Below are positions 6,688 through 57,423 of a DNA stretch of 64,000 nt, in pieces. The position numbers were made by a program, and so were the translations under genes. Below the pieces are notes generated by a model that saw only the letters and a program-made list of their open reading frames with translations, made no database searches and was not told the origin of the DNA. How positions within the stretch are numbered: the stretch's first letter is position 1; every line of letters begins with the position of its first letter. The stretch is from an uncultured Treponema sp. (GTDB taxonomy: Bacteria; Spirochaetota; Spirochaetia; Treponematales; Treponemataceae): NCBI GenBank assembly GCA_946535985.1, contig CAMNDY010000005.1, positions 4,533-68,532 of the forward strand, written 5' to 3'.

Positions 6688-6702
6688 TATCATTTAATGA
6701 GA
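6688..6702 (-). promoter_or_regulatory. Palindromic regulon site (TCTCA-N5-TGATAC-N10-TACACT) upstream of the flhA-C operon
   Basis: Matches the 13-copy motif and its spacing. Confidence 0.7.
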
Positions 6703-6726
6703 GGAAATACAGTTTTCTTTAGAATT

Positions 6727-7083
6727 TTAATTACCCTTCTTCCACATTTCGTAATACTGATTTCGCAGCCCGTTTTCCAGTTCCCAGCTCTGTGGTTTGT
6801 GATACATGCGGCAACGGTAGCGCATTCGGGCAGAGCCACTGTATTTATGGGCATTTTCTAAATACACGTAGGCTTCTTCGTTTAAGCGGGAAGGAGTTTT
6901 CCATGAATGATTTTGAAAAAAACGCATGGAAATATCTTCGAAAGCAAGTCCGCCTCTTCTACAATCCATTTCAAAATTTGATTTGAATTCTTCAGAAGGA
7001 TTATTCAGAATTCCAATTGCACATGTAAGCCACATATTGTCGGAATCTGAGCCAATGAGAATTTCTCTTGGCGTCTTTGTCAT
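6727..7083 (-). CDS. Hypothetical protein
   Basis: ORF; start moved to MTKTPRE after a GAGGGG RBS. Confidence 0.6.
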   Translation of the reverse strand: MTKTPREILIGSDSDNMWLTCAIGILNNPSEEFKSNFEMDCRRGGLAFEDISMRFFQNHSWKTPSRLNEEAYVYLENAHKYSGSARMRYRCRMYHKPQSWELENGLRNQYYEMWKKGN

Positions 7084-7142
7084 AGTTTTAAATGCCCCTC
7101 GCATTGCCTGATTATTCATAATTTTATAATAGCAAAGGACTC

Positions 7143-7157
7143 TATCATCATATGATA
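7143..7157. promoter_or_regulatory. Palindromic regulon site, probably bidirectional
   Basis: TATCA-TCATA-TGATA. Minus strand gives TGATAG-N10-TATTAT; plus strand gives TGATAT-N10-AATAAT. Confidence 0.7.
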
Positions 7158-7197
7158 TTTTCGTATGCAATAATCAAAATACACAAGGAGACAGCTC

Positions 7198-7560
7198 ATG
7201 AAAAAAATAATGATATGCGGTTCACGCTCAATTAATGATGAAAACTTGATCTTTGAAAAATTAAATGCTGTGTTGGTAAACAATCCCGATATGATTTTAG
7301 TTTCAGGTGGTGCAAAAGGAGTAGATTCTATTGGTGAAGCCTGGGCAAAATCACATAATATACAGATTCAGCAATATAAACCCGACTGGAAAAGGTATGG
7401 TCGTGGAGCGGGTATTGTTCGCAATAAAATCATGGTTGAAGCATCTGATTATGTATTTATTTTTTGGGATGGAAGCTCCAAAGGCACAAAATCTGTTATC
7501 GATTTTTGTATAAAATTGAACAAACCATACTTATTGATGGAAATCAAGAATGAGAAGTAA
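7198..7560 (+). CDS. SLOG superfamily protein (YspA-related/DUF2493)
   Basis: ICGSR, VSGGAKGVD, AGIVRNKIM and FWDGSSKGT motifs. Confidence 0.85.
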   Translation: MKKIMICGSRSINDENLIFEKLNAVLVNNPDMILVSGGAKGVDSIGEAWAKSHNIQIQQYKPDWKRYGRGAGIVRNKIMVEASDYVFIFWDGSSKGTKSVIDFCIKLNKPYLLMEIKNEK

Positions 7561-8110
7561 CTGTTTTTTCCAGGCTCTTAAAGCCAAAATAAAGAATCCT
7601 CAGGTACGTTTTTTCAAATTGCCAGAATGCCTTAATGATGCTGTACATTTTATGTGGTGTGATGAGAAGTTTTATTATCATGCATATAACATAAAACACA
7701 ATAATAACTTTTTATTGTATGATTTTAAAATTAAAAAAGTCCCAAGGCATGTATTTGAATCGTTTGTGTTGTCATACCTTGAATGGCATGATGTAAATTT
7801 CAAAATCAAAATTGCCAGAAACTGTTTTATGAAAATTGCTGATTATAAATCTGAATGGGACTGGTCCTTATACAAATACAATCACGACGAGCTTCCTTCA
7901 CAGGAATATTTGGATTTCTTTGAAAAGGTTTTAAAAACCAGTGCTAAGTTCAAATTATGTATTAACGGCCAGATGAAAACAGCAACACTTAAAGAACTCA
8001 AATCTCAAAAATGCAATTTTGAATGGAAAATGATAGACCTCTACGACCCCGATTTTGACAGGGTGTATAGAGGTCATATAAAAAGCGATTACACAGAACT
8101 GGAAGATTAA
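7550..8110 (+). CDS. Hypothetical protein
   Basis: 186-aa ORF overlapping the SLOG gene stop; no family recognised. Confidence 0.65.
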   Translation: MRSNCFFQALKAKIKNPQVRFFKLPECLNDAVHFMWCDEKFYYHAYNIKHNNNFLLYDFKIKKVPRHVFESFVLSYLEWHDVNFKIKIARNCFMKIADYKSEWDWSLYKYNHDELPSQEYLDFFEKVLKTSAKFKLCINGQMKTATLKELKSQKCNFEWKMIDLYDPDFDRVYRGHIKSDYTELED

Positions 8111-8139
8111 ATATAAAAAACCGGATACGTCCGCTTGCA

Positions 8140-9717
8140 TTAAACGTTCGAAAACAACTCCTCCATCCCACACTTAAGCCCCACCTTAGAATACTTTTCC
8201 AGCTTAGCCAGATACTGCTTACGAGTAATATCCCGCGCTCCGTAGCGTTTCATGTTTTCTGTATAGGACTGGCAGTCTATGAGTTTGCCGCCGGCTTTTT
8301 GGAAGGCTCTGGCAAAAAGGACAAAGGCACTTTTGGAACTGTTTGGTTCAATTGTGAACATGGACTCGCCGCAAAAGACGCTGCCAAGTAGGATTCCGTA
8401 AAAACCACCGGCAAGTTTTCCGTCTTTCCAGGCTTCTATGCTGTGGGCGTATCCTGCCTTGTGAAACTTTATGTAGGCGTCAATCATCTTTGGACCAATC
8501 CAAGTTCCGTCCTGATCGGGGCGGTCTTGGGCTGCGCAGTTCTTTATGACATCAGCAAAAGCCTTATCGATTGTGTAAGTGTAGGGATTATGCTTCAAAA
8601 ACTTTTCGATGGATTTTGAAACATGCAGCTGCCTGATTGGAATTACAAAACGCTTCTTTGGAGACTGCCATAAAACAGGTTCGCCCTGGTCTTCATTAAA
8701 CCAGGGGAAAACTCCCTGACTGTAGGCAGAATAAAGCATGCGCAAAGGAATATCTTCTGTGACCAGAGAAATATCGGGAATGCCATAAAGAAGGCCAGGC
8801 TCGGGGAAAGTGAAAATATCAGTCGTGTCAATTTTGGGAGCGGCCTCCTGATCTCCGTTCTCGTTTTCATTCTCATCAACCCTAAGATAATTTTCCAAAA
8901 CCTGTGGACACTGTTCGAGAGCGGGGCTGTCGGTCCATACGTTGTTGAGCAGAAGCTGATATGGCTTGTAATTTGCCTTGTAATTCATTTTGCGGCAGTG
9001 AGGCAGATAAAGGCCAAGGTAATAATAGGGAATCTCATTTTGCAGGCAAAACAAAATTTCATACAGAACGCTAAAAACTCCAATGCTTCGTTTGAGCACA
9101 TCCTCGCTTGTATCATAATAAAAATAATTGGAAGAAATACCTGTGAGTCTGCCCTTTGCATCAATCACATAATCAATAATGCTTACCCCAAGCAGGCGGC
9201 CATCAACCTTATAATCAAGATTAATAATTCCGCTGTAGCCGCTGTTCATGTTCTGCAAATCTTCCTTTGCTTCCTGCAGAGTCAGGGGAGTAAAGTCAGC
9301 TTTTTCTTTATTGTGATAAGCGTTGTAAGTGCGGTACATAAGGGCTTTTTCATCTGTACTGAATTCCTTTGGATCGGTCACAACAGTAACTTCTACATCC
9401 TGATTTTTATTAAGCACCCGCCGCTGACTTTTAGAAGGAACAAAATCTTTTGCGCAAATCCTAATTGGAATACATTCTTTACAGTCCTTACACTGAGTAT
9501 GATAAAGAAGCGAATAATAACGACGAAAGCCCTGGCGCAGGAGCCGGTCATAAAAAATGCAATCCAGCTTTTCAACAGGAAGATTTGAGTCCAGCCAGCT
9601 CATATTTGTAAGAAGATTGTTTGCCTCCCGGTCCTCAAAGTAACCGCATGGGCTTTTATCTTCTCCAAAGGGCATCTCGTTAAAAATTTTTGCAAGGTTG
9701 ATTTGGGCTTGAGGCAT
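8140..9717 (-). CDS. aat: Fusion of an ATE1-like (Bpt) aminoacyl transferase and leucyl/phenylalanyl-tRNA--protein transferase
   Basis: N-half: PCGY, GFRR, CKDCKECIPIR, SIGVFSVL, YYYLG, MNYKANYKP (ATE). C-half: AYSQGVFPWF, GTWI, AHSIEAW, FCGESMF, LIDCQ (Aat). Confidence 0.9.
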   Translation of the reverse strand: MPQAQINLAKIFNEMPFGEDKSPCGYFEDREANNLLTNMSWLDSNLPVEKLDCIFYDRLLRQGFRRYYSLLYHTQCKDCKECIPIRICAKDFVPSKSQRRVLNKNQDVEVTVVTDPKEFSTDEKALMYRTYNAYHNKEKADFTPLTLQEAKEDLQNMNSGYSGIINLDYKVDGRLLGVSIIDYVIDAKGRLTGISSNYFYYDTSEDVLKRSIGVFSVLYEILFCLQNEIPYYYLGLYLPHCRKMNYKANYKPYQLLLNNVWTDSPALEQCPQVLENYLRVDENENENGDQEAAPKIDTTDIFTFPEPGLLYGIPDISLVTEDIPLRMLYSAYSQGVFPWFNEDQGEPVLWQSPKKRFVIPIRQLHVSKSIEKFLKHNPYTYTIDKAFADVIKNCAAQDRPDQDGTWIGPKMIDAYIKFHKAGYAHSIEAWKDGKLAGGFYGILLGSVFCGESMFTIEPNSSKSAFVLFARAFQKAGGKLIDCQSYTENMKRYGARDITRKQYLAKLEKYSKVGLKCGMEELFSNV

Positions 9718-10295: not shown

Positions 10296-10538
10296 TTATA
10301 AATCATAATAATACTGGTTCTGACAGTCTTTTGTTAAAGGGACGTTAAGTTCTTTTTTCATAGCAGTCAGGACTTTGTACAAAACCTTTTCGCTGACACC
10401 ACAAGAAAAACCTTTTTCTTTGTCGTGTCTTTTTACCATAAGGATGATTGAAAGGTCTTTAATGGTGACGCGGTTGCCAGCCCTAAAGAAGTCATCAATC
10501 ATTTTAATTCTTTTATATTCATCAATACCGCAGGACAT
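10296..10538 (-). CDS. Stand-alone winged-HTH protein like the N-terminus of WYL regulators
   Basis: RIKMIDDFFR...TIKDLS...VSEKVLYKVLTAMKKELNVPL...YYY parallels the N-terminus of the WYL protein at 55017-56081. Confidence 0.55.
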   Translation of the reverse strand: MSCGIDEYKRIKMIDDFFRAGNRVTIKDLSIILMVKRHDKEKGFSCGVSEKVLYKVLTAMKKELNVPLTKDCQNQYYYDL

Positions 10539-10589
10539 TCTTGCACCTTAAAAAAATTATAACATTTTTTTGGGGAAAAAGATAGTTTT

Positions 10590-10620
10590 TCTCAAGATGT
10601 GAGAATCTATGTTATATACT
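10590..10620 (+). promoter_or_regulatory. Palindrome TCTCA-N5-TGAGA followed by TATACT, upstream of the sigma factor
   Basis: Variant of the regulon motif with a 9-nt spacer. Confidence 0.55.
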
Positions 10621-10648
10621 GATATTCGAATCAATTTATAGGAGGATT

Positions 10649-11470
10649 ATGTCAAACAAAACTTTTAAGGGCGATTATGTGTCGCTCTATGATGCTTCGC
10701 TTGAGCCTCTTTCAAAGGCAGAAGAACTTGAACTGGCAAAGCAGGCTTCGTTGGGTAATGCGCAGGCACGCGAAACATTAATTCGTGCAAACATCCGTTA
10801 TGCGCTTACTTATGCAAAAAAGTTTTATGGACGCGGCCTTTCAAATGAGGAGGTAAATGAAGAGGCCGTAATTGGGCTTATAAAAGCAATTGACCACTTT
10901 GATTACACAAAGGGCACTAAGGTAATCACTCTTGCCAATATGTACATCATGAACGAAATTGTTTCATCCTGTAACAAAAGCGGCTATATTCAGCGCCAAA
11001 GTGAAGAACGCCTTAGAATGATTTTAAAAATCAATAAGGCCCTTAAAAAAACAAACAGCGACTGCAGCCAGGAAGAGCTCATTGCAAAGCTTTCTGCAAA
11101 AACAGGCTTTGGCAAAAAAATAATTGCAGAACTGTTTGAAGAAAGCCTTCCCTGCCTTAGTCTTGACGATTCAACCGGCAGCGAGTTTGGTGAAACAAGG
11201 CTTTCTATAATTCCAGACACAGCTTCTTTCACTCCGGAAGAAACTGCCTTTTACAGAATCCAGAAGGAACAGCTTTATAAAAATTTAAACAAGCTGGACC
11301 CTCTCGAAAAACAAATCATCTGTATGCTTTACGGCATTGGGCCTTACAAGCATGAATACTCCCTTGCCCAGATTGGCAAAAAGCTTGGTGAATCTAAACA
11401 ATACATTCACTACATCAAGCAGCGTGCCATTGAAAAGCTAAGAACTAACATGGAGGGCATGGCGGCGTAA
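10649..11470 (+). CDS. Sigma-70 family RNA polymerase sigma factor (regions 2-4)
   Basis: LSKAEELELA, ARETLIRANIR, GLIKAIDHFD, region-4 SLAQIGKKLG...RAIEKLR; GGAGG RBS. Confidence 0.9.
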   Translation: MSNKTFKGDYVSLYDASLEPLSKAEELELAKQASLGNAQARETLIRANIRYALTYAKKFYGRGLSNEEVNEEAVIGLIKAIDHFDYTKGTKVITLANMYIMNEIVSSCNKSGYIQRQSEERLRMILKINKALKKTNSDCSQEELIAKLSAKTGFGKKIIAELFEESLPCLSLDDSTGSEFGETRLSIIPDTASFTPEETAFYRIQKEQLYKNLNKLDPLEKQIICMLYGIGPYKHEYSLAQIGKKLGESKQYIHYIKQRAIEKLRTNMEGMAA

Positions 11471-12053: not shown

Positions 12054-12085
12054 TATCATTAAATGATAGCCGCGGCACCTATATT
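12054..12085 (+). promoter_or_regulatory. Regulon site TATCA-N5-TGATAG-N10-TATATT
   Basis: Exact motif upstream of the AAA ATPase gene. Confidence 0.75.
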
Positions 12086-12115: not shown

Positions 12116-14440
12116 ATGGAAAGATTTTCATCAAGACGTTTTAGAAACAGAAGATTTGGAAGAACAAGCAATGCTTCAATTACAAACACAAAAAATGAAC
12201 CTTATGCAATCAGCTATTTACTTTCGGTGCTTTTTGAAAACAAACCTAATTCGGCTGTTATGACTGAATATGATGAAGGTATAAATGCCTTTCTGGAATG
12301 TGTGGAAAAACTTAACAAGAGGGAACGCCTTGAAAAAATCCTTGAAGCAGAAGTAAAGAATCTTGAGAAACAAAAAATTTTAAAGCCGCTTGAATGCGAG
12401 CAAAATGAAGTAATGGCTTATGACGACAGTGATATTCCTTATATCTATGAACAGGATAAAAGAATTGACCGTGCTATGCGTCATTATGATAACATTGATG
12501 AAACCTTAATTAATCTTCACAGAGTTATATTCTGCTCTTCGAAACCTGTTTTCTCCGAAATGATTAAGGCAACTATATTCGGAGAAGAAGACAATTTTTC
12601 CATCACGCAAAAAATTGAATTATCAGCAAAGCTCGCTAAGGCAATCTTTGATATTTCCAAAACAAAGTTTCTTGTAAAGCAGGTGCAGCTCTCGGAAAAA
12701 GAAGCGCTTTATCTTTTAGTACAGTGCCGTCTTAATACAAATGATGACCTGCGTGCATTAAATCGTCATTGCGATAATGAAATCCGTAACTGTATGCCGG
12801 ATATACTTGGAATGACTCAAAAAGACTACAGCTATATGCTCCGAAGCGACCAGAAACTCAGAACCTTTGGCTTTGTTGATAACTCAGGAGACTATGACCT
12901 TTGTATAAATGAATGTATAGAAGCTCAGAGTCTTGAACCATATTTCTGCGACCTTCTTAAGCCGCTTGACTGCTCCAAGGCTTATGCTCTTGATACCTTT
13001 TCTGTAAAACAGGAATCTTTGGAAATCTGCAGCGATTTGTTAAAAGGTAATAATCCGGTTTCTATTCTTTTTTACGGAAAACCCGGCAGTGGAAAAACTG
13101 AACTTGCAAAAGCAGTTTGTAAAGATACAGGCAAAAAGGTTTACATTTTTAAAAACGAAGCCGAGACAGACATGCGTAACAATGTGCTTGGTCGCCTGGT
13201 CTGCCTGCTTTCTATGGAACGTCAGGATTCTATCATCGTTGTTGATGAAGCCGATACCCTTATTAAAACTCTTGAGTTTTCTTTCTTTGGCGTAGTTCCC
13301 TCAAAGAACAAAGGCACCATTAATAAGATGCTCGAAAATAACCGCGACAAAGTAATTTATATCATAAATCATCAGCAGCAGATTGATGAATCTACACGAC
13401 GACGTTTCAATTTTAGTATAAAGTTTGAAATCATGCCTATAAAACAGCTGCGCTCAATTGCCAGAACAAAAATTGAAAAAATGGAGCTTTCGGAAAGTAC
13501 AAAAGACAAAATTGTTCAGATGTTCGACAAATACAAACTCACCGGCCAGAGTGTAGACAACATTGTAAAAATGATTGAAGGCATGGAATGCAAAGAAGAA
13601 GAACCGCTGTTGCATAAAGTTGGGATTGTTATGAAAGAAAACGCCCTGCTCCTTAACGGCAAATCAAAAATGCGCGACACAGTAAAGGCAGAGTATGACC
13701 CCACTGTTTTGAACGCAAGCATGGACCCTCTAAAAATTGTAGAGATGGTTCAGAACGCCACAAAGTTTGCAGAAAAAAATAAGGGAACAGAAAGTGGTGT
13801 AAGAATGCTTTTCTACGGACTTTCCGGAACCGGTAAAACTGAGCTTGCCCGTTATATTGCAGAAGAGCTTGGTAAACCAATTCTCTTAAAACGTGCCAGC
13901 GATATTTTTGGAATGTATGTTGGAGAAAACGAACAGAATATCCGCGACGCCTTTGCCGAAGCCGAAGCCTCTGATTCAATCCTTTTATTTGATGAAGCCG
14001 ACTCTTTCTTTTACAACCGCAACCAGGCCCAAAGAAGCTGGGAACGCACTACCGTAAATGAATTCCTTACTCAGATGGAAGAATTTTCAGGCATCCTCAT
14101 CTGCACAACAAACCTCCGCAACATCATGGACCCTGCAATGCAGCGCCGCTTCCACATCATGGTTGAGTTTAAGCCTATGAAGTTTGACGGCATCAAAACT
14201 ATGCTCGAACGCTACTTCCCGGCCTATCACCTTTCCAACAAAGAAGTTGAAGAACTCGAAGACTGTCAGAGCGTAACCCCGGGAGACTTTGGCGCCCTTT
14301 CAAGCCGCATCCGTTTTATGAACCCTGACGACATAAATGCCCAATATATCCTTGAAGAATTAAAAAAGATGCAGGAAGAAAAGAAAAACCAGTGGGCAGA
14401 AGAAGGCCACAGCGAACATAAAATTGGGTTTAGTGCATAG
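12116..14440 (+). CDS. AAA+ ATPase with two AAA modules
   Basis: Walker A GKPGSGKT and GLSGTGKT, Walker B DEAD twice, SRH DPAMQRRF, C-terminal KIGF. Confidence 0.9.
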   Translation: MERFSSRRFRNRRFGRTSNASITNTKNEPYAISYLLSVLFENKPNSAVMTEYDEGINAFLECVEKLNKRERLEKILEAEVKNLEKQKILKPLECEQNEVMAYDDSDIPYIYEQDKRIDRAMRHYDNIDETLINLHRVIFCSSKPVFSEMIKATIFGEEDNFSITQKIELSAKLAKAIFDISKTKFLVKQVQLSEKEALYLLVQCRLNTNDDLRALNRHCDNEIRNCMPDILGMTQKDYSYMLRSDQKLRTFGFVDNSGDYDLCINECIEAQSLEPYFCDLLKPLDCSKAYALDTFSVKQESLEICSDLLKGNNPVSILFYGKPGSGKTELAKAVCKDTGKKVYIFKNEAETDMRNNVLGRLVCLLSMERQDSIIVVDEADTLIKTLEFSFFGVVPSKNKGTINKMLENNRDKVIYIINHQQQIDESTRRRFNFSIKFEIMPIKQLRSIARTKIEKMELSESTKDKIVQMFDKYKLTGQSVDNIVKMIEGMECKEEEPLLHKVGIVMKENALLLNGKSKMRDTVKAEYDPTVLNASMDPLKIVEMVQNATKFAEKNKGTESGVRMLFYGLSGTGKTELARYIAEELGKPILLKRASDIFGMYVGENEQNIRDAFAEAEASDSILLFDEADSFFYNRNQAQRSWERTTVNEFLTQMEEFSGILICTTNLRNIMDPAMQRRFHIMVEFKPMKFDGIKTMLERYFPAYHLSNKEVEELEDCQSVTPGDFGALSSRIRFMNPDDINAQYILEELKKMQEEKKNQWAEEGHSEHKIGFSA

Positions 14441-18426: not shown

Positions 18427-18470
18427 AAAGCTATTATTTTATTTTGTTTCCTTGAGAATCTATTCCTCCC

Positions 18471-19667
18471 CTACCCCTTATTCACACTCGGAATCCAGGT
18501 GGCCTTATTCAACTTCAAATTCTTAATCCAGCGGTAAGCATCGTCGTATTCCTGTTTGCCTGTCAGAATCCAGAGGATTTGTTTTCTCAGGCGGATTTTT
18601 GGTACACAGGCATATCCGTCTGTAAAAATTATAAGTCCCTGATATTCCGGATGGTTTTCGTAATAGTCGATGGCACACTGAAAATCTGTTCCGCCGCGGC
18701 CGGTAATCTGAATGTTGCGGGTTGCTTTTTTAAGTTCAAACTCCTGCTTGATTTGGGTATCAAAGGCGAGTACCTGAACTGCCTCAACACCATAAGTAAA
18801 AAAACGGTTGATGATAGAGAAAAAGTGAACAAGGTCGTCGGATCCGATAGAGCCGCTTACATCAACAGCAACCAGCAGATGGGTTTTTGGTTCAAACTGG
18901 CTGCCCATAAATTCAAAACCATAACGGCGGTTGGGCTTCATACGGGTGAGCTTGCGGCGCTGGCTTATGATGCTTGCACGAAACTGAGAAAGGATTCTGC
19001 GATAGTCCATGGGGATTTTGAGAGAAGCCGTAATTGTTTCCTGAAAGCTTCCACTCACACTACCCCACTGATTTGTTTTCTGAGCTTTTTGAATCTGCTG
19101 GTTTACAGAGTCTGTCATTTCTTCATCTTCATCCCAAAGTTCAGAAGCTGCAGCAGCAGACTCGTAGTCCCAGGTTTGGTCTTCTCCAAGTGCGGGTCTT
19201 GTAGACATCGGAAACTGCTCCTCTCCCTGCCCGTTTGGATTTATATCAGGACAGATATAATAAAGCTTTTTGTAATACTCTTCATAACTCAAGCCGCTTT
19301 CAAAATTGTACCAGGCTGCGTCCTTTAGTTTAGCGTCACTGTAACAATGCTCGCTTATTGTAACGTCACTGGCAGTCGTTAAAGCCGTACGGTTAGGATT
19401 CTGCGGTACGCGCTGGTAGGGATGCTTGAGCAGAATACGGGTAACTTCGTTTTTAAGACCACGCGCAATATCATCTTCACTGCAACCTTTGAGAAGATTC
19501 GGATTATATTCGATGCGCCGTTTACCGGTTCTAAAGGGGCACTTCATTTCTTTGTTTTCTTCAAGCTTGTGAGTACAGTACACATTAAAAAGAAGCGGCT
19601 CGTACAAAAACCAGTTGTCAACGACATGACTGATTTGTTCTTTTACAGACATGTTAACCTCCGACAT
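18471..19667 (-). CDS. vWA-domain / putative metallopeptidase protein (DUF2201-like)
   Basis: MIDAS DVSGS, FDT, GRGGTDF and IIFTDG motifs; N-terminal EVTRILLKHP. Confidence 0.85.
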   Translation of the reverse strand: MSEVNMSVKEQISHVVDNWFLYEPLLFNVYCTHKLEENKEMKCPFRTGKRRIEYNPNLLKGCSEDDIARGLKNEVTRILLKHPYQRVPQNPNRTALTTASDVTISEHCYSDAKLKDAAWYNFESGLSYEEYYKKLYYICPDINPNGQGEEQFPMSTRPALGEDQTWDYESAAAASELWDEDEEMTDSVNQQIQKAQKTNQWGSVSGSFQETITASLKIPMDYRRILSQFRASIISQRRKLTRMKPNRRYGFEFMGSQFEPKTHLLVAVDVSGSIGSDDLVHFFSIINRFFTYGVEAVQVLAFDTQIKQEFELKKATRNIQITGRGGTDFQCAIDYYENHPEYQGLIIFTDGYACVPKIRLRKQILWILTGKQEYDDAYRWIKNLKLNKATWIPSVNKG

Positions 19668-22251: not shown

Positions 22252-22275
22252 ACGTATTAATATAGTTTGTTACAC

Positions 22276-22290
22276 TCTCATTTAATGATA
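22276..22290 (-). promoter_or_regulatory. Regulon site TATCA-N5-TGAGAG-N10-TATATT (minus strand)
   Basis: Exact motif; ATG lies 7 nt after the -10. Confidence 0.75.
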
Positions 22291-23735: not shown

Positions 23736-23767
23736 TCTCATCACATGACACACTCCTTTGCTACACT
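23736..23767 (+). promoter_or_regulatory. Regulon site TCTCA-N5-TGACAC-N10-TACACT
   Basis: Motif variant with conserved spacing. Confidence 0.6.
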
Positions 23768-24885: not shown

Positions 24886-25009
24886 AGGCCTTTTTCCCGC
24901 TAACCCCAAATCCGCAAATAACGCCAAAAAACAGGGGGTAATGGGGCAGGGTGACATATTACTCAAAAAAAAATTTTCGACGCGTCTACGCGAATCCTAG
25001 AGCGGGTTC

Positions 25010-25195: not shown

Positions 25196-25229
25196 GGACA
25201 AAAAAACATACATTTTTGAGGTGGGACAT

Positions 25230-38138: not shown

Positions 38139-38170
38139 TCTCACCAAATGATAGTTTCCTGCGCTATATT
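38139..38170 (+). promoter_or_regulatory. Regulon site TCTCA-CCAAA-TGATAG-N10-TATATT upstream of addB-addA
   Basis: Exact motif. Confidence 0.78.
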
Positions 38171-41032: not shown

Positions 41033-41044
41033 GGGGGAGCAAAA

Positions 41045-44162: not shown

Positions 44163-44194
44163 TATCACCAAATGAGAGTCTTAACACCTATATT
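44163..44194 (+). promoter_or_regulatory. Regulon site TATCA-CCAAA-TGAGAG-N10-TATATT
   Basis: Exact motif upstream of the SNF2 helicase. Confidence 0.78.
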
Positions 44195-44211: not shown

Positions 44212-46929
44212 TTGGTGCTAAAACCCTTTCCCGACATACATTTTTCAATTCATTCTATTCTCATAAAAAAGCTGGCAGAAGCCGGGCTTGATTTGAAAAA
44301 GGCATTTTTTCATTGGATTTGCAGGGGGGCGGCAGAAGCAGAGGAAACTGAGAGTGATAGTTATGATCAGATTTTCTGGCTGGAATCTCCAATTTCTAAG
44401 ACAGATTTTCCTGAAGGAATTGAATGGCGCGATGTTCGCGATTATGCAGAAGCTTTGCCGCTAAAAAAGAAATCACTCAGTCAGACAGAAAACGAAGAAT
44501 ATAAAATCCTGCGTATGGAAACTGCGGAAACTTTGTTTGACCGCTTTTTGCACGAGGGGCTTAACAATGAGCAGAAGACCCTGGTGGAGGATGTCTGGAA
44601 TCAAACCTACAATTCATTCCCTCAGGTCGATTATAAAAATTTTGATTATTCGCTTTACGGATTTTCTGAAACTTATAACGGCAAGCCTTTTGTTTTTCAT
44701 GAACAGCAGACAAAAGGAATGGCCTTTCTTTGTACAAAAGAAAACGGGCTTCTGGCTTATGATGTAGGAGTTGGAAAAACTGCAACAGGAATTGCTTCTG
44801 TAATTTATCAGATGCAGCATGGCAAGTGTGAGCGTCCGCTTATAATTGTGCCAAAGGCTGTTTATTCAAAATGGGTGCATGACATTAAAGAACTGTTTCC
44901 GTGCATTCCGCTTAATGAACTTGAAAACTTGAATAATGATGTTATTGACCGGCTTCGCATGGATTCGGTTTTTGCTGATGACAACGAAGGATTTTTACTG
45001 CCAAAGAATTCTATTTCTGTCTGCACTGCCGAAGGAACAGAAAAGATTCTTTTTAATGAAAACAGTTGTGATTATTTGCGTCAGAGTTTTCGTCATATTC
45101 TTACAAAAGAAAAAGTTGAAGAAGCTTTGATTCCGCCAAAAGAACTTTCGCTGGAGCAGTTTGTTTATGCAGAAAAACTTGGAATAGATCTTTTGCTGGT
45201 TGATGAAGCTCATCGATATAAAAATCTCATAAAAAGGGTAACAGGCTGCGGGCATTCTGAATTTACAAAGCTTGGTTATGGAGAGCCGTCTGTAAGGGCA
45301 GTAAAGATGTTTGCACTTACGGAATATATTCATCATGTGAGCAATGGGAAAAATGTATTTTTTCTTTCTGCAACGCCTTTTACAAATTCTCCTATGGAAA
45401 TTTATTCAACGCTGCTTTTTATTGGTGGGGAAGAGCTCAGAAAAATTGGTTATGAAAATATCAACGACTTTTTGAATGAGTTTGCAGAAATAAAAATTGA
45501 ATGGTCGGTGAATAATAAAAATCAGGTTGTGCGTAAAACCGTGATGAAAAATTTCCGGTCGCTTGATGCCCTGCAGCATCTTATTCAACATTATATTGAT
45601 AAGGTAGATGCCGAAGAAGCAAAAATCAACAGACCGCAGAAAGAAACTCATGTTGTAAAAATTGAAATGACAGATTTACAAAAAGAGATGTACGATTATG
45701 AGATTGAACAGATTTCCGAAACAAATCAACTTGGAAAAATCTTTGCCGGAATGAATGCCATGCGCATGCTCATGATTTCTCCTGTGTTGGTAACAGGTCC
45801 TGCCGGTAAAATCAAAATTCCTCCTATGGACAAATTTGTTACTTCATCTCCAAAGCTAATGCTTGTATCCGCTGTGATTTTAAACGTGTACAAAGCAAGA
45901 CCCGAATGTGGGCAGATTATTTATCTTCCTCGCGGTGTAAAGGAATCTTCATTGCTAAAGCAGTATCTGGAGCGGCAGGGAATCCCGGGAGAAGCAATTG
46001 CAATGATAAATTCCGGCACAACAGAAAAACGAAAACTCAAAATCACACAGGCCTTTAATGATCCTGATGCTTTACTAAAAATCCTCATTGGTTCAGAAAC
46101 AATAAGCGAAGGTGTTGATTTAAACGGAAACACTCTTGTCTTGTACAACTGTATGCTCGGCTGGAATCCTACGGAACCTGTGCAGGTCGAAGGCCGTTTA
46201 TGGAGACAGGGAAACCGTCAGAAGAAGGTACATATTGTTTATCCGCTTATGTATAATTCCCTGGATTCTTTGATTTACCAGAAGCACGACGAAAAGGCCA
46301 GCCGCATTGATGCTGTGTGGAGCTATCGTGGAGACAGAATCAATGTGGAAGAAATAAATCCCGAAGAGCTAAAGTTTGATTTAATAAAATCTCCGGAAAT
46401 GAAGGCTAGCCTTGTCATAGAGCATGAGGCTATCCCTGTAAAACGCAAACTCAGAATCATAGAAGAAACCCGGGCTTTGATTACTCAGGCTCAGGGAAGA
46501 TATTCAAGCATTGTAAAAGAAAATGCCGCATTGCAAAAGCAGATTGAAAAAAACGAAAATGATATTAAGGCCGTCGTTGCAATGAACAAAGACAAGCCCG
46601 AAGTCTTTAATTTTTTTGCACAGACTTTAAAAGATATGGCGACCAAAGAAATTGAAGAGCTCCAAAAGAAAATCGATTCCAACAACAAGAAAAAGGCCCG
46701 CATGGAAGCCAACATCGAAAACAAAATCAAGCTTGCCGGTGGCACTACAATTGAACAGCTTGATGAAGAGGAAGCCTCCTTAAAAAACCAGCTCCTGATT
46801 ATCCAGGGCAAAAAAGACAAACTGGTCCAGTTGTACACCGCCCAATACCAGGCCGAAAGTCAGACAAAGCTTCACAGCGTAGATGCTGTTGTTGAGGAAT
46901 TGACGGGGAAGATTTTGGGATGTGATTAA
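44212..46929 (+). CDS. SNF2-like SF2 helicase (DarB-type helicase module) with a coiled-coil tail
   Basis: LAYDVGVGKT, DEAHRYKN, SATPFTNS, EGVDL and QVEGRLWRQGN motifs. Confidence 0.85.
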   Translation: MVLKPFPDIHFSIHSILIKKLAEAGLDLKKAFFHWICRGAAEAEETESDSYDQIFWLESPISKTDFPEGIEWRDVRDYAEALPLKKKSLSQTENEEYKILRMETAETLFDRFLHEGLNNEQKTLVEDVWNQTYNSFPQVDYKNFDYSLYGFSETYNGKPFVFHEQQTKGMAFLCTKENGLLAYDVGVGKTATGIASVIYQMQHGKCERPLIIVPKAVYSKWVHDIKELFPCIPLNELENLNNDVIDRLRMDSVFADDNEGFLLPKNSISVCTAEGTEKILFNENSCDYLRQSFRHILTKEKVEEALIPPKELSLEQFVYAEKLGIDLLLVDEAHRYKNLIKRVTGCGHSEFTKLGYGEPSVRAVKMFALTEYIHHVSNGKNVFFLSATPFTNSPMEIYSTLLFIGGEELRKIGYENINDFLNEFAEIKIEWSVNNKNQVVRKTVMKNFRSLDALQHLIQHYIDKVDAEEAKINRPQKETHVVKIEMTDLQKEMYDYEIEQISETNQLGKIFAGMNAMRMLMISPVLVTGPAGKIKIPPMDKFVTSSPKLMLVSAVILNVYKARPECGQIIYLPRGVKESSLLKQYLERQGIPGEAIAMINSGTTEKRKLKITQAFNDPDALLKILIGSETISEGVDLNGNTLVLYNCMLGWNPTEPVQVEGRLWRQGNRQKKVHIVYPLMYNSLDSLIYQKHDEKASRIDAVWSYRGDRINVEEINPEELKFDLIKSPEMKASLVIEHEAIPVKRKLRIIEETRALITQAQGRYSSIVKENAALQKQIEKNENDIKAVVAMNKDKPEVFNFFAQTLKDMATKEIEELQKKIDSNNKKKARMEANIENKIKLAGGTTIEQLDEEEASLKNQLLIIQGKKDKLVQLYTAQYQAESQTKLHSVDAVVEELTGKILGCD

Positions 46930-46931
46930 AT

Positions 46932-46963
46932 TATCATGAAATGAGAGCGCGGAATTGTATTGT
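46932..46963 (+). promoter_or_regulatory. Regulon site TATCA-N5-TGAGAG-N10-TATTGT
   Basis: Motif upstream of the flhA-N gene. Confidence 0.72.
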
Positions 46964-46993: not shown

Positions 46994-47716
46994 ATGAAGT
47001 TTTATTTACCCGTAGGATTAGTTATATTGGTTTTGTTGTTCGTACCAATTCCTGCGCTTGCAGTTGATATTTTTTATTTGCTCACATGGATGTTTGCTGC
47101 GTTCATTCTTTTTACAGAAATTAAATATGGAAACGAGTTGAGGTCACTACCCAGATTATTGCTTTTTGCCGGTCTAGTGATTCTTGCGGTTTCAATATCA
47201 TTTACAAGAGCAATCCTAAATGACGACAGGAGCGTTCTCTACAAATATATATCCGTATTAAACTATAATTTCATCGTAAATATTTTTACAGCAGTTGCAA
47301 TCATGAGTACGTTGTTTGTCTTGACAAACATGGGTGTCAGTAGAATAGTCGTAGTCGCTTTGAATTTTTCTTTGGATACTATGTCTCAGCGATTATTTGA
47401 TGTAGATAATGAACTTAGCAAAGGAGTCATTTCCCCTGAAGAAGCTGCCCAAAAGAAAAAAGAGATCCAGCAGGATATTGATTATTGCAACAGTATGGAA
47501 GGCGCCGCAAAGTTTCTGACAGGTACAGCAAAGGCTCTGATTTTTGTATATGTTGTCTCTTTGTCTGGAGGCACCCTTTTCGGAATTATTTACAACGCGC
47601 AACCCTGGCAGGAAGCTTTACTGCAGTATTCTTTCCTGGCACTTTTGAATGTAATTCTTTATACAGTTCCACTGATTATTCTGGATATTACAGCTATTCA
47701 TGATATTCAACATTAA
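46994..47716 (+). CDS. FlhA transmembrane (FHIPEP N-terminal) domain-only protein
   Basis: LPRLLL, ISFTRAIL, FSLDTM...VDNELSKGVIS.EEA..KK and SMEGAAKF follow the FlhA TM signature. Confidence 0.8.
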   Translation: MKFYLPVGLVILVLLFVPIPALAVDIFYLLTWMFAAFILFTEIKYGNELRSLPRLLLFAGLVILAVSISFTRAILNDDRSVLYKYISVLNYNFIVNIFTAVAIMSTLFVLTNMGVSRIVVVALNFSLDTMSQRLFDVDNELSKGVISPEEAAQKKKEIQQDIDYCNSMEGAAKFLTGTAKALIFVYVVSLSGGTLFGIIYNAQPWQEALLQYSFLALLNVILYTVPLIILDITAIHDIQH

Positions 47717-49032: not shown

Positions 49033-49064
49033 TATCATGAAATGAGAGAGATGGAATGTATATT
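49033..49064 (+). promoter_or_regulatory. Regulon site TATCA-N5-TGAGAG-N10-TATATT
   Basis: Exact motif. Confidence 0.75.
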
Positions 49065-49117: not shown

Positions 49118-49459
49118 ATGAAACGTCTTTTATGGCTCGATGATTTCCGAAACCCAAAGAACTATCTTACTGGCGATTATGATATCGCTTGGGTAAAAAG
49201 CTATGAGGAATTTTGTAGTTATATTATTGCCAACGGTCTGCCAGATATTATCTGTTTTGATCACGATCTGGGGCAGGGAAAATCTGGATACGACTGCGCT
49301 AAGTTTGTAGTCTCCTACTGCCAAGCCCACAATCTTGATATACCGGAATTTGATATTCAAAGTTCAAATACAGTTGGCAAGGTGAATATCCGAAGCCTTT
49401 TGAATAACTGGCATAGGGTGTTTATTTCACAGGAGGAACATAATGGCAAATCCAATTGA
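49118..49459 (+). CDS. Receiver-like domain protein (cyclic-phosphate-processing receiver family)
   Basis: LWLDDFRNP, ICFDHDLG, SGYDCAKF and SSNTVG motifs. Confidence 0.78.
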   Translation: MKRLLWLDDFRNPKNYLTGDYDIAWVKSYEEFCSYIIANGLPDIICFDHDLGQGKSGYDCAKFVVSYCQAHNLDIPEFDIQSSNTVGKVNIRSLLNNWHRVFISQEEHNGKSN

Positions 49460-49677: not shown

Positions 49678-49709
49678 TATCACGAAATGATAGCGCAGCC
49701 AACTATATT
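49678..49709 (+). promoter_or_regulatory. Regulon site TATCA-N5-TGATAG-N10-TATATT
   Basis: Exact motif upstream of the AAA ATPase. Confidence 0.78.
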
Positions 49710-49736: not shown

Positions 49737-51425
49737 ATGAAAGAACAGATGAAAGAAGAACAGAACGAACTTAAGAATCCTAAGAAAATCAGATGGAACA
49801 TTTCGATGGCTATGTCATGTGTTTTTGGGGCACTGTGGAAATCTAAACTCAAAATTAAAAAATCAAAGAAGTATGAAACAGCCATGGAACGCCTGAAGGA
49901 CCTTTATAAACTCACCCAAACTCAGGTCTGGATTTTGTGTCTTGTTTGCGAGCATTTTGTGGAATGTGATGACACTACTTCTCTTTCTGATATTTCAGAG
50001 GCGCTAAATGTTCCGGCAATGACTATTATGAGCTGGAAAAAAGATATAGAGAAAATGGCAGAAGACGGCTTTTTTGAATGGCGACGAAACCGCAAGGATG
50101 TTATACCGGTAACAGAGTTCAATGATTCTCTTTATTCTAATACCCAGTTCATTCCTCAAAAGAAAAAGGAAATGGACGAAATTGACTTCCTTAAATATTT
50201 TGCCGACCGTTATGAATCTCGCCGTGGAGAAGACATGAGCGAGCATATGATTTTCCGTGAGCTTATGGGCTATGAAAGAAGAAGCAGAAATCTTGAAATG
50301 ATAAAACGCGTAAAAGCCGAACTTGATGATGCCCATAATCGCTTCTTTCTTTATGATGTCGCAAGTGATGTTATAGATGGCGGGCTTTCAAATCTTAATG
50401 AAACCATCTCTGATCTCTACGATGGCGGAAGACGATACACAGTTGCAACCCAGATGATGGAAGAGACTCATGAACTTTTTAAGAAAGGACTCCTTGAATT
50501 TGAAACAAAGGGAAATCTTTCTGATGCCGCAGTCACTCTCACCGATAAAGCCAAAAAGCTCGTGTTTGGGGAGAAGGCTTTTTTGTTCGAAGAAAAAATC
50601 AACGAAAAAGACCTCATCAAAGTTGGCGACATCAAAGAAAAGCGCCTCTTTTACAGCCAGCAAAACCAGAAGGAAATTGACCGCCTCAAGAATGCCCTGC
50701 AGGAAGATAAGCTCAAGGGCATCCAGAAGCGCCTCAAGGAAGATGGGTTGCCTGTTGGTGTGGCTGTGCTTTTATATGGGGCACCCGGTACCGGCAAAAC
50801 TGAATCCGTAATGCAGATTGCCAAGGAAACCGGACGTGCCATTGTTCACGTTGATATCTCCGAAGCAAAATCAGCCTGGTTTGGCGAAAGCGAAAAGCGC
50901 ATCAAAAAGATTTTCACCAGCTACAAAAATGCTTGCGAAATTGCAAAAAAGAAGGGCGAACTCATGCCAATTTTGTTGTTCAACGAAGCCGACGCCCTCA
51001 TCTCAAAACGAAAGGACGCAAACTCCGGTAACTGCGCCCAGACAGAAAATGCAATCCAGAACATCATCCTCGAAGAACTTGAAAACCTTCAGGGTATTTT
51101 CATTGCCACTACAAACCTTGCAACCAACATGGATACCGCTTTTGAACGTCGCTTCCTTTTCAAAATCAAGTTTGAAAATCCGTCTGTGGAATCAAAAACT
51201 TCCATCTGGATGAACAAGCTCTCCTGGCTCAACAAAGATCAGGCCACACAGTTTGCAAAGGATTACGACTTTTCCGGCGGCCAGATAGACAACATCGTCC
51301 GCAAGGTCGCCATGAACGAAGTTATTACAGGCGAACGCCCTGCCATCTCCGAGATTCACGATATGTGTATGACCGAAAAAATCGAAAATCCGGACGGGGC
51401 CAGGAAGATGGGATTTTGTTTGTAG
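49737..51425 (+). CDS. AAA+ ATPase (single AAA module; paralog of 62093-63754)
   Basis: GAPGTGKT, LLFNEAD, MDTAFERRF; C-terminal KMGF. Confidence 0.9.
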   Translation: MKEQMKEEQNELKNPKKIRWNISMAMSCVFGALWKSKLKIKKSKKYETAMERLKDLYKLTQTQVWILCLVCEHFVECDDTTSLSDISEALNVPAMTIMSWKKDIEKMAEDGFFEWRRNRKDVIPVTEFNDSLYSNTQFIPQKKKEMDEIDFLKYFADRYESRRGEDMSEHMIFRELMGYERRSRNLEMIKRVKAELDDAHNRFFLYDVASDVIDGGLSNLNETISDLYDGGRRYTVATQMMEETHELFKKGLLEFETKGNLSDAAVTLTDKAKKLVFGEKAFLFEEKINEKDLIKVGDIKEKRLFYSQQNQKEIDRLKNALQEDKLKGIQKRLKEDGLPVGVAVLLYGAPGTGKTESVMQIAKETGRAIVHVDISEAKSAWFGESEKRIKKIFTSYKNACEIAKKKGELMPILLFNEADALISKRKDANSGNCAQTENAIQNIILEELENLQGIFIATTNLATNMDTAFERRFLFKIKFENPSVESKTSIWMNKLSWLNKDQATQFAKDYDFSGGQIDNIVRKVAMNEVITGERPAISEIHDMCMTEKIENPDGARKMGFCL

Positions 51426-51440: not shown

Positions 51441-51524
51441 GCCAAAACGCCGAATGAAAAACGGCCAAAACGCCAGGTAAAAATACGCCAAATCGCCAAA
51501 TAAAAACTTGCCAAAACGCCAAAT
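51441..51524 (+). repeat. Four direct repeats GCCAAA(A/T)CGCC, period 23 nt
   Basis: Copies at 51441, 51464, 51487 and 51510, upstream of the DUF4143 ATPase. Confidence 0.85.
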
Positions 51525-51542
51525 GGAGTATAGAATATAATT

Positions 51543-55016: not shown

Positions 55017-56081
55017 TTACTTTCCCGTACGTTCGAGTTTATCAGCTTTATCAAGAAGACTGTAATCAACTTTGACTCTATACCCAGCCATTTTTGCCAT
55101 AACAGAGACATTGTATTTCCATCGTGTAACAAGCGATTCAGGTGCTAGAGGTTTTGCATAAGCCTTATTTTTGAAAACCCAATCAAGAACTCTCATATCC
55201 TGTGCAGATGAAAAAGTAACAACAGTTCTTTCATAGCCCTGCTCATCAACATCATCAATAAACTCTTGATCATCAGCCCAGTTTCCTAATTTGACATCTG
55301 GTACAGCATCTTCATAGAAAGCAATTTTGTATTTTCTTTCTGCATAGCGGGTAAATGCTCCAAAATGACTTTTCCCGGTATGGTTTTTGAATTCGTAATT
55401 TTCTGGTAATTTAAAAGGAATATTTGTATCAATAATGTCATACATATCATTAATATCATAAAGCCGAACTGCTTTCTTTTCACGAAGATATCCAAATAAT
55501 AGGCTTTTCCCTTCATCAATCAATAACTGATAGGGTTCAACATGCAAAGAACTTTTTTCTAAATCTGGATCCCAATGATTATTTTGATAACGAAATCTTA
55601 TAACATGATTCTTTGTAATTACATTACATATTTGGCTCCAGATTGTTGTATTAATTGGTCTTGTTGTATTTGTAGTTGGAGCTAAAGCTATTCTAGATAA
55701 AAGAGGAGAGTCTGCCTGAATCTTACAAACATTATTCAGAACCTTTTCTATCTCTTCATAAAAAGGTGTGTTATCAAAATATGTAAGTAAAAGTTTTGCG
55801 GCGGAAAGCATTTGTAAATTATTTGCAAGCATATCATCTACATAAGGGAATCTCCATGGGGCAGCATCTGGACTATAGAAATAACCTCCATAACGTCCCT
55901 CATACGTAAGAGGAGCACCCATGTTATATAATTCTTGGATGTCCTTATAAACCGTTCTTATACCACATTTTAATTCTTTGGCTATTTCGTCTGCTTTTGG
56001 TCGATTGTTATTTAGAATCATTTGATGAATCTTAAATAAACGTTGAATTTTATTTAATGAAGTTGTTGCATTTCCAAACAT
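55017..56081 (-). CDS. HTH-WYL-WCX transcriptional regulator
   Basis: wHTH IAKELKCGIRTVYKDI; WYL-region VEPYQL...RLY; WCX WV...PLAPESL. Confidence 0.88.
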   Translation of the reverse strand: MFGNATTSLNKIQRLFKIHQMILNNNRPKADEIAKELKCGIRTVYKDIQELYNMGAPLTYEGRYGGYFYSPDAAPWRFPYVDDMLANNLQMLSAAKLLLTYFDNTPFYEEIEKVLNNVCKIQADSPLLSRIALAPTTNTTRPINTTIWSQICNVITKNHVIRFRYQNNHWDPDLEKSSLHVEPYQLLIDEGKSLLFGYLREKKAVRLYDINDMYDIIDTNIPFKLPENYEFKNHTGKSHFGAFTRYAERKYKIAFYEDAVPDVKLGNWADDQEFIDDVDEQGYERTVVTFSSAQDMRVLDWVFKNKAYAKPLAPESLVTRWKYNVSVMAKMAGYRVKVDYSLLDKADKLERTGK

Positions 56082-56123
56082 ATCACACCATAAAATATTG
56101 GATTTTTTTTAAAATTTTTTTTT

Positions 56124-56160
56124 AGAACTGCACGTAGTATGCAGTTCTATATTATATACT
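56124..56160 (+). promoter_or_regulatory. Palindrome AGAACTGCA-N7-TGCAGTTCT followed by TATACT; candidate WYL operator
   Basis: Perfect 9-bp arms between the divergent WYL gene and the downstream operon. Confidence 0.7.
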
Positions 56161-56215
56161 CAAATCATACATTCGTAAATGTATGAATGTAAATATTTTT
56201 TTCAGGAGGCTGTTT

Positions 56216-56398
56216 ATGAAGAAACAGTTTAGAAAGGTCGGTATTAGTTTTAAGTATCGAAATAAGAATTCAGATTTCGATGGGCTTGAGTTAAACATTA
56301 ATTTTGATGGTAGTACATTGGAAGATGATAATACTAGTAATCAACAATTATCTTACGATGAACCAGATTTAATCGAGGAGGATACAAATGATGAGTAA
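56216..56398 (+). CDS. Small protein with an acidic C-terminus
   Basis: AGGAGG RBS; overlaps the start of the next gene. Confidence 0.6.
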   Translation: MKKQFRKVGISFKYRNKNSDFDGLELNINFDGSTLEDDNTSNQQLSYDEPDLIEEDTNDE

Positions 56399-57131
56399 AA
56401 TCAACAAGGAATTCGACCGCATAGAGATGTACCAGAAAATCAAATACCCAATGTTGAGAGGCTGTATTGAAGATGGAGTTCTTATTCCGGAAGCTTATGA
56501 AAAATCTCCATTAAAGATGATGGTAATCTTAAAAGAACCATTTGATGCATGGGATGAAGAAACACAATCGCCAATTGGAGGAGATTTTTGTTTTGCAGAT
56601 ATTATACGTAATCTTGAAGATGAATATAAAAAGGGTTTGAATAAAACCTGGCTTAAGGTTGCAGCAATGGCTTATGCAATAAAGCATGGGATTCCTTATT
56701 CTGAGAATCTAACTTTAGAAATGGTTAGGGAAGGGCTATCTTGCATCTGCTGGATAAATCTCAGTAAGACTCCATGGAAAACCCAATCGGATGTTAAAGA
56801 TAAAAACTATCTTTCTCGAGTAAAAGATTGGGAACCTGTTGTAAAGGAGCAGTTAAAATCTATTGATTATAATCTAATCCTTTATGGATATACCTGGGAT
56901 TGTTCCTTATTAAATCCGATTGAACCTGATAAATGCTGGGATTATACCAAAGTTCACGATAAACAAGATTATACTTATTGTTCTGAATCTGGAAAAAAAT
57001 ATGGTATTCAAATCTTCAGGTATCAGGGTTCAAATAAAATTATCGTAAATGGTTATCACCCAGAATTGGGTAATAGTGCTGGTTGGCAAACTGATTTTAT
57101 TCAGAACTATATAAATATGTATGGATTATAA
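56388..57131 (+). CDS. Hypothetical protein, possibly uracil-DNA glycosylase superfamily fold
   Basis: KMMVILKEP, CWINLSK and GYHP resemble UDG-like motif A, Asn and motif B. Confidence 0.5.
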   Translation: MMSKINKEFDRIEMYQKIKYPMLRGCIEDGVLIPEAYEKSPLKMMVILKEPFDAWDEETQSPIGGDFCFADIIRNLEDEYKKGLNKTWLKVAAMAYAIKHGIPYSENLTLEMVREGLSCICWINLSKTPWKTQSDVKDKNYLSRVKDWEPVVKEQLKSIDYNLILYGYTWDCSLLNPIEPDKCWDYTKVHDKQDYTYCSESGKKYGIQIFRYQGSNKIIVNGYHPELGNSAGWQTDFIQNYINMYGL

Positions 57132-57161
57132 ATAAGCCATTTCGATAGATAGGAGATTATT

Positions 57162-57359
57162 ATGTCAAACGAAAATTCTGGAATTTTAATTGTATTAGGT
57201 GCTATAGGAATTGCTGCTTTTGGCGCAATTGGAGCTGCTCTTTTTATGAACACAGAAACTGGAAGAAAGACAGATGCTAATCTATCAAATGCTTATAAGA
57301 CTGTGAAAGAGAGTTTACCACAAACTAAAAGCTGTAAGAATGAACTCAGTACAAAGTGA
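57162..57359 (+). CDS. Small single-TM membrane protein
   Basis: AGGAG RBS; hydrophobic N-terminal helix. Confidence 0.6.
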   Translation: MSNENSGILIVLGAIGIAAFGAIGAALFMNTETGRKTDANLSNAYKTVKESLPQTKSCKNELSTK

Positions 57360-57362
57360 ATG

Positions 57363-57391
57363 AATTCTGGGGAAAAGTTTTTCCCCAGAAT
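57363..57391 (+). terminator. Stem-loop (probable terminator)
   Basis: Inverted repeat ATTCTGGGGAAAA...TTTTCCCCAGAAT right after the stop codon. Confidence 0.65.
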
Positions 57392-57423
57392 TATCACAGA
57401 ATGATAGTATCCATGATTATCAT
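57392..57423 (+). promoter_or_regulatory. Regulon site TATCA-N5-TGATAG-N10-TATCAT
   Basis: Motif upstream of the gene at 57455. Confidence 0.72.

Follow-up and report, generated by a model that had tools for sequence, protein, structure and literature searches.

A palindrome at a fixed distance from the -10 box marks a predicted dispersed regulon on mobile DNA of Treponema and is likely bound by a DriD-type WYL activator

The closest described relatives of the system reported here are the WYL-domain regulators DriD, PafBC, DdaA and BrxR/CapW. Dimers of DriD from Caulobacter crescentus (PDB 8tp8, 9pfv) flank a poor -35 region at a constant distance from the -10 box, the DriD palindrome is CGAC-N7-GTCG, and a site is also found at the regulator's own locus (PMC12340889). 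Mycobacterial PafBC uses a single -26 element, in which PafB reads the triplet GTC via R46 and R50 (PMC8635444). DdaA of the Moraxellaceae carries both helix arginines, binds at CGWCA-N5-TGWCG some 50 bp ahead of the start and replaces the SOS response for recA, uvrA and ssb (PMC12392091). BrxR and CapW are repressors of mobile defence regions with one or two operators, an inverted repeat with a 5-bp spacer, and the BrxR operator is located downstream of its -10 box (PMC9122601). Here we describe a 64,000-nucleotide stretch of an uncultured Treponema sp. (assembly GCA_946535985.1, contig CAMNDY010000005.1, positions 4,533 to 68,532; "the window"), in which a palindrome recurs as a promoter element 10 nucleotides (nt) before the -10 box. 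It is likely bound by a dimeric helix-turn-helix (HTH)-WYL activator of the DriD type, which would drive about a dozen transcription units of a mobile element, probably when it senses single-stranded DNA (ssDNA); we put the probability of this reading at roughly 0.7. We found no description of such a system in the open literature on WYL regulators, Treponema and mobile-element regulons, supplements and subscription papers aside.

The 13 palindromes listed by the original prediction were all found at their coordinates. Twelve of them carry the full element T(A/C)TCA-N5-TGA(T/G/C)AN-N10-TANNNT, with the hexamer exactly 10 nt past the six-base right arm as had been claimed, and the gap at 10590 is 9 nt. 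The statement that each site faces its adjacent gene needs a qualification at 7143, which is two-sided, with the better hexamer on the minus strand and only the weaker one on the SLOG side. The sites are listed below (aa, amino acids; ORF, open reading frame).

6671-6702, minus strand: site with its -10 box (palindrome at 6688), TCTCA-N5-TGATAC-N10-TACACT, heading the FlhA C-domain and FlhB C-domain genes
7126-7157, minus strand: site (palindrome at 7143) with TATTAT; an in-frame ATG 6 nt further on begins the 131-aa ORF 7119-6727, likely leaderless
7143-7174, plus strand: the same palindrome read toward the SLOG gene 7198-7560, with the weaker hexamer AATAAT
10590-10620, plus strand: variant site with the 9-nt gap, ahead of the sigma-70-family gene 10649-11470
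12054-12085, plus strand: site ahead of the AAA+ ATPase gene 12116-14440
22259-22290, minus strand: site (palindrome at 22276) at the head of an operon for a 239-aa protein, a 231-aa protein, MoxR and vWA (22251-18471)
23736-23767, plus strand: site with one mismatch (TGACAC), ahead of a 246-aa gene of no known family, 23799-24539
34424-34455, plus strand: site ahead of a 75-aa gene of no known family, 34480-34707, found in genome G284 too
38139-38170, plus strand: site ahead of the AddB/AddA-like pair 38282-44149
44163-44194, plus strand: site ahead of the SNF2-type helicase gene 44212-46929
46932-46963, plus strand: site ahead of a paralogue of the FlhA membrane domain, 46994-47716, of 240 aa and with 33% identity to host FlhA
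49033-49064, plus strand: site ahead of the cREC receiver-like gene 49118-49459
49678-49709, plus strand: site ahead of the AAA+ ATPase gene 49737-51425
57392-57423, plus strand: site ahead of a 71-aa ORF at 57455 and the 113-aa ORF 57694-58035

These numbers are far above expectation. In 150 windows simulated with an order-3 Markov model, the strict palindrome was found 0.46 times on average (maximum 3) against the 13 observed, and the palindrome followed by N10-TANNNT 0.03 times (maximum 1) against 12. The assembly (G000; 2.78 Mb, 86% complete; G or L plus a number denotes other Treponema genomes or loci, and C a contig) contains 23 strict palindromes with the N5 spacer, 14 of them on the window's contig; 15 of the 23 are intergenic, whereas each of the other spacer lengths (2 to 9) gave 0-2 intergenic cases. 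The consensus of the site is (C)TATCA-YNAAA-TGATA(G). With a scoring matrix trained on 106 sites, all from other genomes, the leading hits, each scoring at least 19.8 bits, were 12 in the window (11 sites) plus a single site on C138, and five locally shuffled genomes used as a control gave 0-5 hits at 18 bits or more. With this matrix the sites 10590 and 23736 score below 13 bits. Outside the window, sites precede a DnaQ-like exonuclease gene (G000:C138:1971) and a WYL gene (G000:C5:71841, 18 nt from its -10 box); a further palindrome, at 60067, falls within an ORF and lacks a -10 box. The 10590 variant, TTCTCA-N5-TGAGAA, is positioned between the sigma factor gene and an 80-aa stand-alone HTH gene, and it may belong to a separate circuit, since its 9-nt gap is kept at the orthologous locus of G027, it adjoins this HTH gene and its score is low.

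The fixed spacing is also found when the loci are selected in a different way. Among 44 loci chosen by protein similarity alone there are 41 palindromes outside ORF interiors, and a 5/6 match to TATAAT is present at gap 10 in 29 of them, while the other gaps between 6 and 16 each have 0-8 such matches. An in-frame ATG lies exactly 6 nt past the hexamer in 16 of 25 site-preceded WYL genes but only in 5 of 94 other targets. Leaderless mRNAs have this spacing, which argues that the hexamers are real -10 boxes. Leaderless starts imply that the palindrome spans -38 to -24, with its right arm at -28 to -23 and its centre near -31. A -35 box matching at 4/6 positions occurs in only 12 of 167 sites, in agreement with the earlier remark that no clear -35 was visible. 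The TGn extension of the -10 box is present in 24 of 31 self-promoters of WYL genes as opposed to 40 of 136 other target promoters, 88 of which have neither TGn nor a 4/6 -35; the window has two ordinary TTGAC promoters. We read this pattern, which concerns promoter sequences, as a regulator gene that would be expressed basally and targets that would need help. The right arm lies where PafBC has its -26 element (PMC8635444) and one WYL clade is linked to the site, so that the proposed activator-type promoter with WYL-activator geometry is supported. A MerR-type promoter with a long spacer was ruled out, as the best TTGACA match at spacers 19-21 is at most 4/6 in 119 of 119 sites. The RNA data consist of contigs with a small share of the sequence words, and run X16 covers two promoters poorly and shows no starts.

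The site is probably read by a WYL clade in which the recognition helix lacks the first of two arginines. WYL genes are present in 10 of the first 10 motif regions, and the elements carry up to seven WYL paralogues. When 104 distinct WYL genes with upstream sequence were sorted by recognition helix (leaving out proteins shorter than 290 aa, rows with a gap in the helix and three rows without upstream sequence), the palindrome was found upstream of 37 of 56 genes with a helix of the form non-R-T-x-x-R-D, compared with 2 of 48 others, and upstream of none of the 20 genes having both helix arginines. The top held-out hit (G001:C6) has a site directly upstream. Close homologues of the linked regulator are mostly records from Treponema and other spirochaetes. 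In a profile alignment the kept helix arginine aligns to R50 of PafB, and A, P or T stands at the position of R46. We infer that the loss of the R46 equivalent might account for TGATA in place of TGTCG, a link between operator and helix that can be tested. HTH-only proteins with the linked helix are encoded at G284:C76:8836-9078 and L082:1068-1409 and could compete with the activator. Other WYL clades have palindromes of their own, namely GAACTGCA-N7-TGCAGTTC (window 56100-56130) and TGTCGCA-N5-TGCGACA (G000:C25, upstream of 21674).

The best sequence-profile hits of the candidate in the PDB are to PafBC. An AlphaFold model of the clade-H candidate from G027 (predicted local distance difference test score, pLDDT, 83) has the architecture of a winged HTH domain followed by WYL and WCX domains, and Foldseek matched it to DriD (8tp8) with a template modelling (TM) score of 0.62 and an E-value of 2e-16; PafBC (TM 0.38) and CapW/BrxR (TM 0.31-0.35) are weaker matches. 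Of the ssDNA-contacting residues of PafB, in the numbering of PMC11804915, clade A mostly has R181, R204, R208 and R214 and not R211, and clade G, with a member at G027:C5:163908-164972, likewise retains several.

It is instructive to compare the system with the four described ones. The predicted fold makes DriD the best structural match, and the palindrome over a poor -35, the fixed distance to the -10 box and the site at the regulator's own locus are features of DriD as well (PMC12340889). On the other hand, TMTCA-N5-TGAKA differs from the DriD sequence in half-site and spacer, the candidate lacks the first helix arginine, sequence identity is 14-16%, several paralogues share the helix, and the regulon is carried by mobile DNA, where as many as 26 matches to the pattern occur within 240 kb. 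The position of the right arm followed by N10-TANNNT and the retained R50 equivalent are PafBC-like (PMC8635444, PMC11804915), but here two arms are conserved, the GTC triplet and R46 are absent, recA and uvrA are not covered and no obligate gene pair is shown. DdaA shares the CA-N5-TG core, and in it too the first of two ssDNA arginines of the WYL domain is replaced (PMC12392091); its site is farther upstream, and LexA is kept in our genomes. BrxR and CapW resemble our candidates in being WYL regulators of mobile DNA with a 5-bp spacer, and differ in being repressors, in having few operators where the present regulon is dispersed, and in their weaker fold match. The layout of a known repressor operator, which had been named as an alternative, was not found either, because the site lies upstream of the -10 box at a fixed gap. 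The system would work like DriD, with PafBC geometry and a DdaA core, yet the operator test failed for each; we take it to be a variation on DriD/PafBC/DdaA-type regulation with unusual targets, namely truncated copies of FlhA, FlhB, FliG, DnaB and GyrA. The presence of two complete arms in the palindrome, together with the fold match, speaks more for a homodimer of the DriD kind than for the sigma adaptation of PafBC.

The window itself has one intact WYL gene plus fragments, as the original prediction noted, although the intact gene is probably not the cognate regulator, as it has its own palindrome and another helix. Neither of the two fragments, a C-terminal remnant at about 1640-1770 and the 80-aa HTH gene, has the linked helix.

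55017-56081, minus strand: intact HTH-WYL gene, helix GIRTVYKDI, with its own palindrome GAACTGCA-N7-TGCAGTTC, which is retained in the G027 orthologue
10296-10538, minus strand: stand-alone winged-HTH gene for 80 aa with the helix SEKVLYKVL, oriented divergently to the sigma gene
18455-18475, minus strand: break point, a ribosome-binding site remaining past the vWA stop

The last of these features is explained by comparison with G284, which has the closest related element, with the same replicon (RepA 78%, ParA 89%) and 13 sites. There the MoxR-vWA operon continues into an FlhB-C fusion and then into a clade-H WYL gene at G284:C5:29388-30392, a candidate regulator. The window matches G284 up to the ribosome-binding site past vWA and then enters a methylase unit with an ordinary TTGACT promoter, so the regulator appears to have left its syntenic place in this genome. 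As the assembly shows no gene of the regulator clade, the regulon would be driven from unassembled or co-resident DNA, or be orphaned; the regulator may be in the unassembled 14%, supplied in trans, or lost. In G061, the clade-A gene and most sites are on separate contigs.

The sites are located on a plasmid-like element of a probable gut Treponema. Its replicon is the following.

24534-27562, plus strand: plasmid replicon without a site of its own, comprising ParA (25221-25982), a 160-aa ORF and RepA (26500-27510), surrounded by eight iteron-like repeats

RepA shares 79% identity with a protein encoded by plasmid pTRESU01 of T. succinifaciens, and the gene order is the same; relatives of RepA occur in 11 of 36 congeneric genomes. 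Sequencing runs containing the stretch come from gut, sheep-gut and bovine-gut metagenomes. The strict pattern is present in 47 of 163 congeneric genomes, and the reversed control gave no hit. The largest set is found on G027:C5 (240 kb), with 26 relaxed matches versus a mean of 2 in 30 shuffles. This contig shares many genes with the window, maps to at least nine small contigs of the present assembly and encodes VirD4, VirB4, VirB6, VirB10, VirB11, TrbF and TrbG; tblastn found no match to TrbF, TrbG or VirB10 in this assembly, so the evidence for conjugation is confined to the relative. G002 and G051 have fewer sites, which lie in a chromosomal island, and the cultured strain T. bryantii NK4A124 (L074), which has a clade-A protein, carries 18 sites, which makes experimental tests feasible. 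The three named Treponema plasmids pTRESU01, pTS2 and pTB1 have no site. Outside the order, 11 of 300 genomes from a phylum-wide draw matched, about as many as in the reversed control (10 hits); two of these outside loci adjoin a WYL gene. A 5-kb block at 3122-8151 (GIY-YIG, FlhB-C, FlhA-C, SLOG and two ORFs, with two sites) is cleanly skipped in contigs of three DNA runs, which show the join 3121-8152, joints with short sides being left out.

The earlier suggestion of an undescribed spirochaete DNA-damage response does not hold for the host's general response; the regulon is that of the mobile element. No site is present in the 500 nt upstream of recA in 5 of 5 genomes, nor upstream of uvrA in the 4 of 4 genomes with upstream sequence (in the present genome uvrA sits at a contig edge and is not counted), matrix scores being below zero in both cases, and LexA exceeds the family cut-off in 5 of 5 genomes. 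A host-wide damage regulon is ruled out by these site-free promoters together with the presence of LexA. Chromosomal genes can nevertheless be recruited, as in G017 a site stands directly ahead of a replicative dnaE (L069:7830-11546), 68% identical to the only dnaE of the present genome. The accompanying idea of a phage response was not borne out, as 41 viral contigs have one match each and none of these adjoins a WYL gene.

Several observations weigh against the activator reading. None of the eight WYL genes of this assembly, at 86% completeness, has the linked helix, and none of the linked type was seen in G131, which has 3 strict sites. As many as 19 of the 56 WYL genes of the linked helix type are without the palindrome, and at least three paralogous clades share this helix, so the partner may be any one of several. 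Because the genomes are related to one another and the motif served to pick the first ten regions, the association counts overstate independence and inflate the helix contrast. About 30% of the target promoters have TGn and could fire unaided. Finally, clade H, which is syntenic with this element, keeps only R208 of the PafB ssDNA residues (numbering of PMC11804915), and its trigger may therefore differ.

These points leave room for other explanations. The same WYL clade could repress at the site in the manner of BrxR/CapW, with ssDNA relieving the repression of extended -10 promoters: a site ahead of the regulator's own gene is usual in autorepressors, the TGn promoters in the proportions given above need no -35, and the window does contain defence genes. 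We nevertheless hold this to be improbable, as the gap to the -10 box is invariant, most targets have neither -35 nor TGn, the BrxR operator lies on the other side of the -10 box (PMC9122601), the fold is closer to DriD than to CapW/BrxR, and the restriction-modification, AbiEi and type IV restriction genes of the window are without a site. The missing regulator gene would in turn be accounted for if another protein of the element read the palindrome, such as the WYL gene G000:C5:70750-71808 just beyond the window, the 80-aa HTH protein or the sigma factor at 10649. The first of these is the only one of the eight WYL genes with a palindrome upstream, and it keeps the second helix arginine. However, its site is 18 nt from the -10 box, its G027 orthologue has an N6 variant, the ssDNA arginines are absent, and a close orthologue is missing from the 200 kb of G061 that contain 20 sites. 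The boxes recognised by sigma factors are not palindromic, which makes the sigma factor an unlikely reader of a palindrome, and altogether we give such an alternative reader little chance.

A recombination or cassette site that shuffles promoter-gene modules would fit the differing gene content between sites among relatives and the skipped 5-kb block with its two sites. This explanation fails, however, because neither the ends of that block nor the break after vWA coincide with palindromes; the 53 window proteins that were scanned include no integrase, and a recombination site needs neither a -10 box at a fixed gap nor a leaderless ATG. The check for recombination raised at the outset thus came out against it, and we consider it very improbable.

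Under the preferred reading, a WYL dimer would straddle -38 to -24 and hold the housekeeping RNA polymerase on promoters unable to fire alone. The regulator itself would stay primed through its leaderless, extended -10 promoter bearing the same site, a positive feedback, and sensing of ssDNA would switch on about a dozen transcription units at once. These would supply DNA-processing enzymes, AAA+ and MoxR-vWA proteins, domains for nucleotide signalling and shortened versions of the host's flagellar and replication proteins.

The targets named earlier in the window, i.e. the AddAB-like pair, the SNF2 helicase, two AAA+ ATPases, the MoxR-vWA operon, SLOG and cREC, are indeed preceded by sites, as are FlhA-N, FlhA-C with FlhB-C, and ORFs of no known family. 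Both parts of FlhA follow sites as proposed, yet they are not the halves of a broken host gene, given identities of 33% and 39% to host FlhA; a host flhA split by inversion was ruled out, since an intact one (710 aa) lies on contig C15. The two flagellar paralogues headed by the site at 6688 are as follows.

5529-6644, minus strand: stand-alone paralogue of the FlhA cytoplasmic domain, with 371 aa and 39% identity to host FlhA
5135-5551, minus strand: stand-alone paralogue of the FlhB C-domain, with 138 aa, lacking the NPTH motif present in host FlhB

Across the relatives, the first gene after the 167 sites is WYL in 31 cases, AAA+ in 18, DnaQ-like in 7, a FliG piece in 7, and DnaB-C, AddB, FlhA-N or SNF2 in 5 each, 74 being unlabelled; RtcB, GyrA pieces and TPR proteins are also preceded by sites. 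The FlhB pieces are without NPTH, and Walker A is broken in 4 of 9 DnaB-C copies. Clusters of truncated flagellar paralogues (FliG, FliI, FlhA-N, FlhA-C, FlhB-C fusions, FliM/N), DnaB-C and GyrA pieces are found on large elements, at G027:C5:1-20000, 88558-105341 and 167608-168786 and at G061:C6:56445-78966. Since neither the restriction and AbiEi genes nor the transfer genes are preceded by a site, the regulon is not a classic defence-gene switch. We speculate, as a tentative and rather unlikely extension, that a large conjugative Treponema element runs an ssDNA-triggered programme of its own in which, in addition to repair enzymes being made, crippled copies of the flagellar export gate and motor (both the membrane and the cytoplasmic part of FlhA, FlhB-C without NPTH, FliG, FliM/N, FliI), DnaB and GyrA stop motility and replication. 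The copies might brake the host machinery in a dominant-negative way or draw off phage inhibitors as decoys, and the stop would be reversible and set during damage, infection or conjugative transfer.

If the activator reading is correct, control by WYL activators would extend to spirochaetes and to large mobile elements, in parallel to an intact LexA system. Four features are particular to this case: it sits on a mobile element of a spirochaete, the regulon is large, the helix is altered, and truncated host-machinery proteins are among the targets. The motif would also mark co-regulated genes of no known family, including the truncated flagellar and replication copies, which in the literature searched have seemingly never been tied to a stress programme.

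A few minor observations concern the neighbouring genes. The sigma gene divergent from the 80-aa HTH gene (10296-11470) is RpoD-like, with the conserved variant palindrome between the two, and the HTH protein has 12 close homologues of 70-107 aa. A gene at 8140-9717 fuses arginyl-tRNA-protein transferase and Leu/Phe-tRNA-protein transferase domains, and its relative on G076:C48 follows a site. The 3' end of a short, apparently SlyX-like gene is repeated 3.3 kb upstream (34768-34813 and 38087-38132); the repeat brackets Fic, hydrolase and AbiEi genes and is possibly an insertion scar. Tandem repeats of 23 nt (GCCAAAACGCCAAAT-like) stand before or after genes at 51441-51525 and 58043-58104.

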